This document shows, one piece after another, positions 14,063-25,968 of a DNA stretch of 64,000 nt. The notes beneath the pieces were generated by a model. That model had not been told where the DNA came from and did not search any database. It saw only the letters and a program-made list of their open reading frames with translations. The DNA is taken from the NCBI RefSeq assembly GCF_055900595.2, contig NZ_CM148325.1; one strand, written 5' to 3'. The translations under genes were made by a program, and so were the position numbers. Position 1 is the first letter of the stretch; every line of letters begins with the position of its first letter.

Positions 14063-14839
14063 ATGGCAAGAAGTGGATTTGAAGTCCAGAAAGTCACCGT
14101 AGAGGCATTATTTCTACGAGAAATACGAACACGCTTTGGTAAGTTCCGTCTGGGATATTTGTGGGCGATTCTCGAACCCTCTGCGCATTTGCTGATACTG
14201 TTGGGCATTTTTGGTTACATTATGCACCGCACGATGCCAGACATCTCATTCCCGGTGTTTTTACTTAATGGCCTGATTCCCTTTTTTATCTTTAGCAGTA
14301 TCAGCAATCGTTCTGTAGGTGCTATTGAAGCGAATCAGGGGCTGTTTAATTATCGACCAGTAAAACCCATCGATACGATCATTGCGCGTGCATTGCTTGA
14401 GACACTGATTTACGTTACTGTTTATATATTGCTTATGCTTATCGTCTGGATGGCAGGCGAATATTTCGAAATAACAAACTTTTTACAACTTGTGCTTACC
14501 TGGAGTTTGTTAATCATTCTTTCATGTGGCGTTGGCTTAATATTCATGGTCGTTGGTAAAACCTTCCCTGAAATGCAAAAGGTCCTGCCGATACTGCTTA
14601 AGCCGCTGTATTTCATCTCCTGCATCATGTTCCCTCTACACTCGATTCCGAAGCAATACTGGTCATATCTACTCTGGAATCCATTAGTGCATGTCGTAGA
14701 GTTAAGCCGCGAGGCAGTTATGCCTGGCTATATCAGCGAAGGCGTGAGTCTGAACTACCTGGCAATGTTTACATTGATAACTCTGTTCATTGGTCTGGCG
14801 TTATACCGAACTCGTGAGGAGGCAATGCTGACATCATGA
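14063..14839 (+). CDS. kpsM: Capsule polysaccharide ABC-transporter permease KpsM
   Basis: N-terminus MARSGFEVQKVTVEALFLREIRTRFGKFRLGYLWAILEP matches recalled KpsM nearly residue-for-residue. The track ORF start at 14003 lies upstream of the ops element and was rejected. Confidence 0.9.
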   Translation: MARSGFEVQKVTVEALFLREIRTRFGKFRLGYLWAILEPSAHLLILLGIFGYIMHRTMPDISFPVFLLNGLIPFFIFSSISNRSVGAIEANQGLFNYRPVKPIDTIIARALLETLIYVTVYILLMLIVWMAGEYFEITNFLQLVLTWSLLIILSCGVGLIFMVVGKTFPEMQKVLPILLKPLYFISCIMFPLHSIPKQYWSYLLWNPLVHVVELSREAVMPGYISEGVSLNYLAMFTLITLFIGLALYRTREEAMLTS

Positions 14840-14938
14840 TTACTTATCACTAGTATAAAACAGGAACAATATCATAGAAACATCAAAAAAACAAAAGTAT
14901 ATATCTATTGTATTAAAACTTTAAAATCAGGCTGAATA

Positions 14939-15931
14939 ATGTTAACAGCTATAATTCCGATAGATCTGAAGCGTAGACCTAAAGATATAATTAGAAAAGC
15001 AATAAATATTGCTGAGGCAACAAAAAATAATAATATAAAAGTTATATTTGGTCATGGGAATCGTTTCACTACATATGATCGCACCTTTACAAGATTGTTA
15101 AATGGGTATGAGAATGTCCATGTAAAATCATGCGATAATTTTTCTAAGGCCATAAATGCATCTCTATTAAGAAATCAGGCGTTTAAATCAGTTGAAAGTG
15201 AATATGTTATATTACTGGATGTGGATATATACCCTGATTTTAATTTATTTGAGAAGTATAAAGAGAAAATAAAATCTGGCATAAAGCCGTTTTATATTTT
15301 GCCATGCCTATATTTAACAAAATACGGGACAAGTATATTAAATGATAGAAAGGCTTCAATTGAATCATTAAAAAAAAAGTACTTTGCGTTTTCTAGGAAA
15401 GAGTTTTTGCATTTAGCCAGTCCTTCTTCTATTACAATATTAAAATCAGCTGATTATGAAACACTTCATGGTTTTGATGAGAGTTTTCGAGGTCATGGCT
15501 ATGAAGATTTTGATTTCTTGGTGCGCTTGTATAACCATTATTTTATACCTAAAGTAAAGGCTGATTTTTTGGCCGATAGGCCATGTCATTCTCCATTGTT
15601 TGTCACAGGGTTTAGACGATACTTAGGCGAATACTGTTTAGATATTTTATTGCATAAAGACTTTGCGTTTCATTTATACCATAATAAAAACAGGAATGAA
15701 GATTATTATATAGCTAGAACTGAAAATTATCATATATTCAAACAGAAGCACAAAAAAAATATAAGCAATGAACGATATTACGATTCAACGTTGCTTATGT
15801 TATTTATTAAACACTGCATTGATAAGGGGGAGGACATTCGAAATTATAGCATATATTTCGATAATAAACCTGGACATATAGACCGTTACGATACGTTACG
15901 ACGAAGAATTAAATTTTTGCTAAATCAATAA
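14939..15931 (+). CDS. Region-2 GT-A fold glycosyltransferase (GT2-like), AT-rich
   Basis: N-terminal AIIPID motif, DxD motif (LLDVDIY), and HGFDESFRGHGYEDFDF resembling the GT-A [W/H]GxEDxD signature; low-GC codon usage. Confidence 0.6.
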   Translation: MLTAIIPIDLKRRPKDIIRKAINIAEATKNNNIKVIFGHGNRFTTYDRTFTRLLNGYENVHVKSCDNFSKAINASLLRNQAFKSVESEYVILLDVDIYPDFNLFEKYKEKIKSGIKPFYILPCLYLTKYGTSILNDRKASIESLKKKYFAFSRKEFLHLASPSSITILKSADYETLHGFDESFRGHGYEDFDFLVRLYNHYFIPKVKADFLADRPCHSPLFVTGFRRYLGEYCLDILLHKDFAFHLYHNKNRNEDYYIARTENYHIFKQKHKKNISNERYYDSTLLMLFIKHCIDKGEDIRNYSIYFDNKPGHIDRYDTLRRRIKFLLNQ

Positions 15932-24042: not shown

Positions 24043-24394
24043 TATCGATAATACTCTTTCATTTACTACCAATGGAGATTATAAGAATGCAGAGCCAAAT
24101 ATACCTTTGATAGAAAAACTGAGAGAATATAAAGGAAAAGGTTACGAGATTATACTTTCCACGAGTAGAAATATGCGAACCTATAATAGTAATATAGGAA
24201 AGATTACAGCAGTAACTTTACCTATAATTGTAGAGTGGCTAGAAAAAAATAATGTACCTTATGATGAAATTTATGTCGGTAAACCATGGTGCGGTCATGA
24301 GGGATTCTATGTGGATGATAAGGCCATTCGTCCCAATGAATTTGTTAACTTAAGTTATAATGAGATAAAAAAATTGACAGGTATTAAATCATGA
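24023..24394 (+). CDS. HAD-superfamily phosphatase-like protein
   Basis: Start chosen at MKRIIFDIDNTL, the HAD motif I (DxDxT), followed by a serine/threonine motif (LSTSR). The track ORF begins earlier at 23954. Confidence 0.5.
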   Translation: MKRIIFDIDNTLSFTTNGDYKNAEPNIPLIEKLREYKGKGYEIILSTSRNMRTYNSNIGKITAVTLPIIVEWLEKNNVPYDEIYVGKPWCGHEGFYVDDKAIRPNEFVNLSYNEIKKLTGIKS

Positions 24395-25968
24395 TTTTGA
24401 TTACTTCGGCTGCCTATATTTCTAATGAATTGAGAATTGAGTTTGGTGTTATCCCTCCATGTTTATTACCCATTGGTAATCGTACTTTATTAGAGTATCA
24501 AGCAGAATCAATTCGTAAAATGAGCAACGAGAAAATTTTTTTGACTTTGCCAGAGGATTACTGCCTATCAAAATTTGAAGAACGATTACTAGACTCGCTA
24601 AATATACGAGCCATCTACTTATCACCAAATTTAAGCTTAGGTGAGTCTATTTATCAAGCACTTGATAGTATAGGTGATTATACTTTTTCATCCGATGGTC
24701 TCAAGCTGTTACATGGTGATACTCTGATTAATGATTTAACTAATCAGAATGATATTATTGCTGTGGCACCATCTTCAGATGATTATTTTTGGGAAAAAGA
24801 AGAACATACATATGAGAACCTTGCCTGGTGCGGTTATTTTACATTTTCTATGCCTAATATATTTAAGGGCTTTTTAGAAGCATCAAGATTCAATTTTGTA
24901 CAAGCAGTTCGTTCTTATGATGAAGTAATCCACCTCAGTCGTATGAAACCAAAAAGCTGGGATGATCTAGGGCATTTAAATACTTATTTTATTTCTCGAT
25001 CTAACATTACTACTCAGAGAGCATTTAATGAAATGCGTATTCAACATGGGATGGTATGGAAGTCAAGCAAAAACAACAAAAAAATTCTTGCTGAAACGAA
25101 TTGGTATAAAAAAATCCCAGCCTTACTAAAATCTTTTACACCTCAGTTGATCGAAGACGGTATTTACAACAAAACTGGAAATTATTTCTACACATTAGAA
25201 TATTTACCATATATCCCATTAAATGAAATATTTGTTCACGGCAAAAATCCAGATTTTTTTTGGAGGAAAATTTTCAATATTATCAAAGAATACTTATTCA
25301 AAGCTAATAGTGCACTGACAAATATTAGTCAAAATAATATTGGTGAAAAAATAGCCATTGATTCTGAAGCGTTATATAGGACTAAAACATTTGTTAGACT
25401 CACAGAGTATGCCGTTGAGAATAATATATCAATCGATAAGCCTGTTTTTTACGATAACAGAAGATTACCTTCATTACACGATATAGCTAGTGATTGTATA
25501 GACCGAACTACTCAGCTACCAATTGTACCTTCAATTCTTCATGGGGATCTTTGCTTTAGTAATATTCTTTTCAACTCTCGTCTTAACAGCATTAAAGTGT
25601 TGGATCCTCGTGGTATAAGCCATAATGGTGAAGAGACCATTCTTGGTGACCAAAAATATGATCTGGCAAAACTCTGCCATTCAGTAATAGGGCTTTATGA
25701 TTATGTAATTTCCGGAAGATATCATTTAGATGGGGATCTATTTAATAATGCTGTTATATGGTTTGATATAGATACACGAATTAAGAGTATTCAGCAAGAA
25801 TTTTATGAATATAAATTTTTGTCTAATATTAGTGTTGGAGAAATAATGCCTCTTACTACTTTGCTATTTTTGTCTATGCTGCCCCTTCATAGCGATCGTC
25901 CGGATCGTCAAAAAGCTATGCTGTTTAATGCACTGCGGATATATTCTACATATGTTTACGATGTTTAA
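24391..25968 (+). CDS. Two-domain protein: N-terminal nucleotidyltransferase-like region plus C-terminal aminoglycoside/choline-kinase-like phosphotransferase domain
   Basis: C-terminal half contains HGDLCFSNILFN...VLDPRG, resembling the catalytic loop of APH/ChoK-type kinases. N-terminal region (LLPIGNRTLLEYQ) is nucleotidyltransferase-like. Confidence 0.45.
   Translation: MILITSAAYISNELRIEFGVIPPCLLPIGNRTLLEYQAESIRKMSNEKIFLTLPEDYCLSKFEERLLDSLNIRAIYLSPNLSLGESIYQALDSIGDYTFSSDGLKLLHGDTLINDLTNQNDIIAVAPSSDDYFWEKEEHTYENLAWCGYFTFSMPNIFKGFLEASRFNFVQAVRSYDEVIHLSRMKPKSWDDLGHLNTYFISRSNITTQRAFNEMRIQHGMVWKSSKNNKKILAETNWYKKIPALLKSFTPQLIEDGIYNKTGNYFYTLEYLPYIPLNEIFVHGKNPDFFWRKIFNIIKEYLFKANSALTNISQNNIGEKIAIDSEALYRTKTFVRLTEYAVENNISIDKPVFYDNRRLPSLHDIASDCIDRTTQLPIVPSILHGDLCFSNILFNSRLNSIKVLDPRGISHNGEETILGDQKYDLAKLCHSVIGLYDYVISGRYHLDGDLFNNAVIWFDIDTRIKSIQQEFYEYKFLSNISVGEIMPLTTLLFLSMLPLHSDRPDRQKAMLFNALRIYSTYVYDV

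Follow-up and report, generated by a model that had tools for sequence, protein, structure and literature searches.

Which capsular polysaccharide is made by a group 2 capsule locus whose two exporter genes, kpsM and kpsT, are separated by biosynthetic genes, and has such a locus been described before? The question is raised by positions 14,063 to 25,968 of a 64,000-nucleotide stretch of DNA (contig NZ_CM148325.1 of RefSeq assembly GCF_055900595.2; the whole stretch is referred to as the window), where kpsM and kpsT stand among six K-specific genes whose products have 330, 1248, 829, 248, 123 and 525 amino acids (aa). A sequence-only reading of this DNA had taken the serotype-specific part of the locus, region 2, to be probably undescribed. 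Comparison of the encoded proteins with reference clusters leads us to a different answer, namely that the stretch is almost certainly the Escherichia coli K52 (KL52) group 2 capsule locus, as found in sequence type 69 and clonal complex 69 (ST69/CC69) and related extraintestinal pathogenic E. coli. The K52 locus, the K52 polymer and the unusual kpsM/kpsT order are already on record, and we add nothing to them as a discovery.

Identity of the locus

The assignment was made by comparing md5 sums of the window's proteins with the kTYPr supplementary InterPro table, in which protein lengths and md5 sums are printed. Four of the six K-specific proteins (those of 330, 1248, 248 and 123 aa) were identical by md5 to K52_13, K52_12, K52_9 and K52_8, respectively, and the remaining two, of 525 and 829 aa, agree in length with K52_7 and K52_10. 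Read from kpsS, the gene order of the window (kpsS / 525 - 123 - 248 - 829 - kpsT - 1248 - 330 / kpsM) matches the kTYPr numbering, which runs from 7 to 13 in the same direction; number 11 is absent among the K-specific rows, and we infer that it is kpsT, which lies between the 829- and 1248-aa genes. The four identities, the matching lengths and the numbering therefore point together to K52. One InterPro row of the supplement, labelled K51_10, bears the md5 sum of K52_12, so that at least one row is mislabelled; each of the four matches that we used is backed by several consistent rows and by equal lengths.

For its K52 cluster kTYPr draws on SSI 81998 (GCA_977947195), the serological reference strain of K52, which was sequenced in the kTYPr paper (2026). 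Because the reference cluster is that of the serological type strain, the protein identities indirectly support production of the K52 antigen by strains with this locus. A second 2026 catalogue, with Gladstone/Kaptive-type nomenclature, lists KL52 (K52) with CU928163 (UMN026) as its reference. The window agrees with the K52 and KL52 references in its six K-specific genes and their order, in the kpsFEDUCS/kpsM frame and in the ST69/CC69 lineage, and nothing substantive differs. A described locus with the same order and identical proteins is the very observation that the sequence-only reading had set against its own claim of an undescribed region 2, and that claim falls.

When 5,426 complete E. 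coli genomes were searched by megablast, the locus (a 14.5-kb stretch) was present at full length and at least 99% identity in 39 of them, mostly human isolates but also isolates from dogs, chicken and wastewater, and including O15:H18 ST69. Two K52 genomes, NZ_CP076301.1 and NZ_CP018957.1, matched in two pieces over a span 777 bases longer than the query. The excess fits an insertion of insertion sequence (IS) 1 with its target duplication within 14900-26000, and these may be capsule-inactivated variants.

Organization of the window

The layout given here is an open reading frame (ORF) listing; the genome of an E. coli O15:H18 ST69 isolate, 100% identical here, is annotated in the same way in RefSeq. 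ORFs, annotation and domain calls also bear out the coordinates, gene anatomy and domain descriptions of the earlier reading. The basis of each call is given in brackets.

Ending at 13006: gsp...yghD type II secretion operon, followed by a non-coding leader (ORFs and RefSeq annotation)
13996-14034, + strand: JUMPstart RNA motif with ops core (Rfam RF01707)
14063-14839, + strand: kpsM, ABC-transporter permease, an ordinary E. coli group 2 allele (NCBIfam KpsM, E=8e-56)
14836-14853, + strand: relic of a kpsT start, a 5-codon ORF (MITYH*) that marks the rearrangement junction (read from the sequence)
14939-15931, + strand: 330-aa GT-A (GT2-like) glycosyltransferase, K52_13 (Pfam PF10111)
15951-19697, + strand: 1248-aa multidomain TagF-like capsule polymerase, K52_12 (Pfam Glyphos_transf)
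19869-20549 (alternative ATG at 19863), + strand: kpsT, ABC-transporter ATPase (ORF, annotation, motifs)
20769-23258, + strand: 829-aa hexapeptide acyltransferase fusion, K52_10-like (NCBIfam, Pfam, AlphaFold2 model)
23296-24042, + strand: 248-aa BcbE/KfoE-like protein of nucleotidyltransferase fold, K52_9 (PDB 4EVW match)
24023-24394, + strand: 123-aa HAD "capsule biosynthesis phosphatase", K52_8 (TIGR01689)
24391-25968, + strand: 525-aa kinase-motif protein, K52_7-like (HGDxxxxN motif)
26186-27295, - strand: degenerate IS3-family transposase between region 2 and kpsS (RefSeq: frameshifted, internal stop)
27541-35485, - strand: region 1, kpsS, kpsC, kpsU, kpsD, kpsE and kpsF (ORFs and RefSeq annotation)

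The frame is that of a group 2 (2A) locus: kpsFEDUCS, kpsM and kpsT are present, the site lies beside gsp/yghD, and a JUMPstart motif stands upstream of kpsM. On this point the sequence-only reading, which had called a group 2 locus with canonical export genes, is confirmed. G+C content drops from about 55% in gsp, which flanks the locus, to 43% in kpsM and 28-33% across 14.9-26.0 kb, including kpsT at 32%. KpsM is 98-99% identical to the KpsM proteins of K116-like, K4-like and K7-like loci. KpsT has intact motifs (Walker A GRNGAGKST, signature SSGM, Walker B YYLVDE) and is 74-80% identical to other KpsT proteins overall (78% for the K116-like, 77% for the K4-like, 79% for the K7-like and 80% for the Phytobacter locus).

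Outside the K-specific region, a full-length Rfam match to isrN, an Hfq-binding small RNA, lies within the IS3 remnant (26888-27030, + strand, 123.7 bits, E=2.5e-27). Downstream of kpsF, positions 36000-64000 hold many minus-strand ORFs, including ORFs of 840 and 1041 aa at 44.5-50.3 kb.

Separation of kpsM and kpsT

In a classical region 3, kpsM and kpsT are adjacent, with overlapping stop and start codons. In the window they are 5.0 kb apart, and the two genes for the 330-aa glycosyltransferase (GT) and the TagF-like 1248-aa protein lie between them, as the earlier reading had correctly seen; of the classical arrangement the relic ATGATTA alone remains. Compared with canonical locus DNA, the window is 97.8% identical up to position 14842, three bases beyond the kpsM stop, and the identity then collapses. 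The sequence at the break point is ...ACATCATGATTACTTATCACTAG, in which the canonical overlapping kpsT start (ATGATT...) survives as the five-codon relic. With the break exactly at the canonical kpsM/kpsT overlap, we read the K52 gene order as a derived rearrangement of a widely exchanged cassette.

The separation is a known variation and does not exclude membership of group 2; one 2026 catalogue names K52 among the loci with rearranged kpsM/kpsT. The split had been put forward earlier as a novelty, but it is already in the literature and is more extreme in K7-like loci. In the K7-like locus of E. coli FDAARGOS_497 (positions 11124-21751 of locus L032; wecB/wecC, N-acetylmannosaminuronic acid type) the kpsM/GT junction is identical to that of K52, with ACATCATGATTA followed by a spacer of about 100 nucleotides (nt), and the counterpart of the 330-aa GT is 70.5% identical. 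There kpsT stands at the far end beside kpsS, with all of region 2 (six genes) between kpsM and kpsT; the polymer genes are unrelated to those of K52, and no TagF-like polymerase is among them. The K7-like GT was found in about 60 complete genomes.

Two histories fit the K52 order equally well. Either kpsT moved to its place behind the polymerase gene, or a frame of the K7 type (kpsM-GT-...-kpsT-kpsS) acquired, downstream of kpsT, the genes for the acyltransferase and the fructose branch, perhaps by way of the IS3 element whose relic remains. When repeats that could explain a relocation of kpsT were sought, the sole find was a 10-nt direct repeat, ATGAAATAAT, at 19689-19698 and 19855-19864, where its copies flank the 166-nt stretch from the polymerase stop to kpsT. 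The repeat may mark the event by which kpsT came to its place, but in DNA so rich in A+T it may also be accidental.

Relatives of the K52 cassette

Other relatives of the K52 genes retain the classical order. In a K116-like E. coli locus (ST38) the GT, polymerase and acetyltransferase are 63%, 47% and 68% identical in amino acid sequence to those of K52, and in Phytobacter, Leclercia, Enterobacter ludwigii and Yersinia massiliensis the GT is 53-60% and the polymerase 37-42% identical, with an acetyltransferase of 66% identity in E. ludwigii. These loci share with K52 the low G+C content and the group 2 frame, but in them kpsM and kpsT are adjacent and overlapping and are followed by the GT and polymerase genes. 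The K116-like locus and its counterparts further differ from K52 in having a short acetyltransferase of 262 aa that lacks the GT-A-like extension, and in having no fructose module.

The whole cassette also occurs outside this group. In an Aeromonas sp. (positions 4680-16141 of locus L031, on an SRR11478880 contig) all six K52-specific genes are contiguous, at 38-58% amino acid identity and low G+C. The frame there is group 3-like (kpsD-M-T-E ... kpsC-S), without a kpsT inside the cassette, and the BcbE-like gene comes last in its module, whereas in K52 it comes first. This cassette predicts a K52-like polymer outside the Enterobacterales. A. bivalvium carries a cassette of GT, polymerase and acyltransferase fusion without the three-gene module.

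Expression of the rearranged locus

The earlier reading had also proposed that the separated genes belong to one transcript under ops/RfaH control, which our scans leave plausible. The 5' leader of region 3 holds a JUMPstart element some 30 nt ahead of kpsM (58.5 bits, where the gathering score is 35; E=1.7e-11), the single one found by Rfam scan in 13000-27600; it contains the ops core GGCGGTAG at 14023-14030 by pattern match. By number alone the ops pattern does not stand out in the window (3 matches, 2.8 expected), so that the argument is carried by its position and by the Rfam match. No terminator-like site was found on the + strand of 14063-25968. The RNA fold of the spacer between the polymerase gene and kpsT was unremarkable (z = -0.99), with a 10-bp stem and a large loop that do not make a canonical terminator, and the promoter scan was uninformative (73 sites against 80 expected).

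Because ops/JUMPstart stands upstream, no terminator-like site was found on the + strand, and RfaH and ops have an established role in group 2 loci, a single RfaH-dependent, antiterminated transcript through all eight genes is most likely. It would run from upstream of kpsM through the GT, polymerase and kpsT genes into the remaining K-specific genes. The loss of translational coupling between kpsM and kpsT is evidently tolerated, since all 39 genomes have intact ORFs and both K52 and K7 are expressed serotypes; KpsM and KpsT, though translationally uncoupled, would still make up the ABC exporter that acts together with region 1.

Polymer and polymerase

The K52 repeat, on which Hofmann, Jann and Jann published in 1985, is reportedly ->3)-alpha-D-Gal-(1-phosphate-, with beta-D-fructofuranose at O-2 and with O-acetyl/O-propionyl groups. 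The structural paper announces a "fructose-containing K52 capsular polysaccharide" in its title, and K52 is grouped with K11 and K51 among the E. coli capsular polysaccharides with phosphodiester bridges. The polymer forecast from the sequence, a teichoic-acid-like and possibly O-acetylated capsule, thus stands in part: a phosphate-containing polymer was rightly expected, as was its reported O-acylation, whereas the polyol-based, teichoic-acid-like character does not agree with the galactosyl-1-phosphate polymer bearing fructofuranose that K52 is reported to be.

The 1248-aa protein has a TagF-type Glyphos_transf domain (PF04464) at residues 464-821 (E=1.4e-40), with the motifs LQHG562, PHPN688 and DYSS728. 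Its closest relative among solved sequences is TarL, with whose "MHP" the PHPN motif aligns. By sequence the domain is thus of TagF type, with two putative catalytic histidines (in LQHG562 and PHPN688). The N-terminal 470 residues, in a model built from eight homologues (mean predicted local distance difference test score, pLDDT, 70), resemble RmlT and TarS, wall-teichoic-acid glycosyltransferases of GT-A type (E=1.8e-7 and 8.5e-5); no DxD motif is invariant in this domain among the eight homologues, and its activity is therefore uncertain.

A Stealth-type polymerase was considered and rejected, as none of the four proteins scanned had a Stealth Pfam match (CR1-CR4) and the other two fit other families. 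In capsule polymerases, domains of TagF type are reported to act as transferases for both glycerol-phosphate and hexose-phosphate. With no Stealth enzyme present, the TagF-like domain in the 1248-aa protein stands out, judged from sequence, as the best candidate for the galactose-1-phosphate transferase. It would polymerise the backbone by transfer of galactose-1-phosphate from UDP-galactose. An architecture that the K52 protein may share, an N-terminal GT-A domain joined to a TagF-like phosphotransferase, is found in the polymerases Cps1B, Cps12B and CslB (Litschko et al. 2018, PMC5974469), whose type of product has hexose-1-phosphate diester bonds, as the K52 polymer reportedly does. The likeness would be at the level of architecture, the K52 N-terminal domain being without a conserved DxD, and the products differ in that those of the Cps1B/Cps12B/CslB type are oligosaccharide phosphates whereas for K52 a backbone of monosaccharide phosphate is reported.

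The 330-aa protein is a GT-A enzyme (Pfam Glyco_tranf_2_2, PF10111, E=2.8e-23) that accompanies the polymerase in every relative and is present also in the K7-like locus with its unrelated polymer. The acceptor common to K52 and K7 is the poly-Kdo (3-deoxy-D-manno-oct-2-ulosonic acid) linker, and for this reason we suggest, only as a guess, that the 330-aa GT primes on it.

In the 829-aa protein we distinguish a left-handed beta-helix O-acyltransferase domain (residues ~36-233), a helical middle and a C-terminal GT-A-like DUF7796 domain (~525-829). NCBIfam models of WcaF/NeuD-type acetyltransferases match at about residues 140-231, and the Pfam matches to Hexapep and DUF7796 are weak. The C-terminal half was modelled by AlphaFold2 at a pLDDT of about 80-90, and Foldseek returned glycogenin, GT6 and LARGE1, which are retaining GT-A enzymes, as the best matches of the last ~300 residues (E ~5e-4); on this model the domain is a putative glycosyltransferase. 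The beta-helix domain is the candidate for O-acylation and would add the O-acetyl/O-propionyl groups. Fusions of this acyltransferase-GT type were also found in Aeromonas and Pantoea. Candidates for priming on the poly-Kdo linker and for fructosyl transfer are the 330-aa GT-A protein and two GT-A-like domains, one at the N-terminus of the polymerase and one at the C-terminus of the 829-aa protein.

A probable fructose module

Three further genes (BcbE/KfoE, HAD TIGR01689 and kinase) are present and adjacent at 23296-25968. The 248-aa protein matches PDB 4EVW, a "nucleoside-diphosphate-sugar pyrophosphorylase", at E=8e-71. The 123-aa protein scores 202.6 bits against TIGR01689 (cut-off 162, E=1.6e-60) and matches PDB 1XPJ at E=2.6e-47. 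The 525-aa protein combines an N-terminal degenerate NTP-transferase-like part with a C-terminal kinase of the APH/choline-kinase-like type. Sequence searches of Pfam and PDB with it gave nothing significant (the Pfam matches were weak), and its assignment as a kinase comes from the HGDxxxxN motif (HGDLCFSN at 384) and from its kTYPr InterPro row, which places a protein kinase-like (PK-like) superfamily domain at 232-429.

Homologues of the three proteins occur together in a K4-like locus (in and next to the position of kfoE), in a plasmid-borne, Stealth-containing K11-type locus, in a group 2 locus of E. coli LC-1302-2020 and in the Aeromonas locus described above. The K4 polymer has a fructofuranose branch, and kfoE is required for its fructosylation. 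The kfo genes of K4 encode BcbE/KfoE-like, HAD and kinase-type proteins homologous to those of K52 (46%, 60% and 35-45% amino acid identity, the first being that of the 248-aa protein to the protein at the KfoE position). The two polymers are alike in their beta-fructofuranose branches and differ in backbone, that of K4 being chondroitin; in the K4 locus the fructosylation genes are interspersed with IS elements, unlike those of K52. The K11 polymer also bears fructofuranose. Because the triad co-occurs with fructose-containing K types, and because of the kfoE phenotype, the kinase, HAD and nucleotidyltransferase genes most likely belong to a fructose-branch module common to K4- and K11-like loci, whose products would supply or install the beta-fructofuranose branch. 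A kinase, a phosphatase and a nucleotidyltransferase side by side resemble a pathway of sugar activation such as that to GDP-heptose, and we favour the view that the triad would make an activated fructose, which one of the GT-A-like domains would transfer.

We tentatively raise a more specific possibility, by analogy, although we think it rather less likely to be right than wrong: the triad may be a de novo route to nucleotide-activated fructofuranose, in which the KfoE family would be NDP-sugar pyrophosphorylases and the DUF7796 GT-A-like domain would be the transferase. The proposed sequence of kinase, phosphatase and pyrophosphorylase would resemble the HddA/GmhB/HddC route to GDP-heptose. 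If this were true, KfoE-family proteins would not be the fructosyltransferase that they are currently called. A profile of the DUF7796 region matches a 562-aa ORF that stands alone next to the module in the K11-type locus (32% identity by BLASTP) and, weakly (19.7 bits), a 477-aa ORF that precedes the HAD gene of the K4-like locus. The idea that DUF7796 is strictly tied to the fructose module was weakened, in that A. bivalvium has the domain without the module and the LC-1302-2020 locus has the module without the domain.

Two of these loci deserve a separate remark. In the K4-like locus of strain WP7-S18-ESBL-09 (L006, 12374-14719) the homologue of the 525-aa protein is split by IS1 into ORFs of 379 and 146 aa, and this strain may make unfructosylated chondroitin. 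The LC-1302-2020 locus (L004, 5901-13422) has the BcbE/HAD/kinase module at 54-72% amino acid identity to K52 and also encodes a 1157-aa "HAD-IA" multidomain protein and a 415-aa protein.

Alternative explanations

An undescribed serotype-specific region with a novel kpsM/kpsT architecture would sit well with the generic NCBI annotation of these genes ("hypothetical protein", "acyltransferase"), with the lack of any matching NCBIfam model for the 330-, 1248- and 525-aa proteins, and with a locus that is not K1-, K5- or K2-like. It is refuted by the md5 identities with the K52 reference cluster, to which the entry of KL52 in the second catalogue, the listing of K52 as rearranged and the kpsM/GT junction shared with K7-like loci can be added, and we give it next to no credence. 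We find it scarcely believable, too, that the rearranged locus is a decaying, non-expressed remnant. The lost ATGA overlap with its five-codon relic, the lack of a strong Shine-Dalgarno sequence visible before kpsT and the degenerate IS3 element beside kpsS could be taken as signs of decay, but all eight ORFs are intact and conserved at 99% or more in the 39 complete genomes, the serological K52 reference strain encodes the same proteins, K52 ranks among the top bloodstream K types and has the highest estimated invasiveness, and K7, in which the split is wider, is an expressed serotype as well.

It is also quite improbable that the capsule is a true polyol-phosphate polymer (of glycerol- or ribitol-phosphate, as in K2, K18 and K100), made by a TagF-like domain that uses a CDP-polyol. 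The domain type is annotated as CDP-glycerol glycerophosphotransferase, the closest solved sequence, TarL, is a ribitol-phosphate polymerase, and the 248-aa protein has a weak IspD-like cytidylyltransferase match (E=7e-4). Yet no TagD-, TarI- or TarJ-like gene for CDP-glycerol or CDP-ribitol synthesis was recognised by NCBIfam among the proteins of the locus, TagF-like capsule polymerases also transfer hexose-1-phosphate, and K52 is reported as fructose-containing, phosphodiester-bridged and without polyol.

Some points do weigh against the reading of the locus as K52 and the mechanism that we attach to it. The 525- and 829-aa proteins each differ by at least one residue from kTYPr K52_7 and K52_10 (their md5 sums are unequal), a difference that is allelic variation. 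UMN026 (CU928163, NC_011751) lay outside the set of E. coli genomes compared, and the kTYPr md5 sums were used in its place. The enzyme assignments are predictions from comparison of sequences and models. Co-transcription of the genes from kpsM to that of the 525-aa protein is likewise deduced. Finally, the acyltransferase-GT fusion occurs in A. bivalvium although the fructose module is absent there, which leaves the roles of the three GT-A-like domains as candidate roles.

Significance of the K52 assignment

K52, a capsule type of uropathogenic and bloodstream E. coli, is reported as the commonest K locus of CC69. It ranks in the top five K loci of European bloodstream infections, and its estimated invasiveness is the highest. 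K52 is thus clinically important, and for typing, and for work on vaccines or phages, it matters that the locus is recognised correctly.

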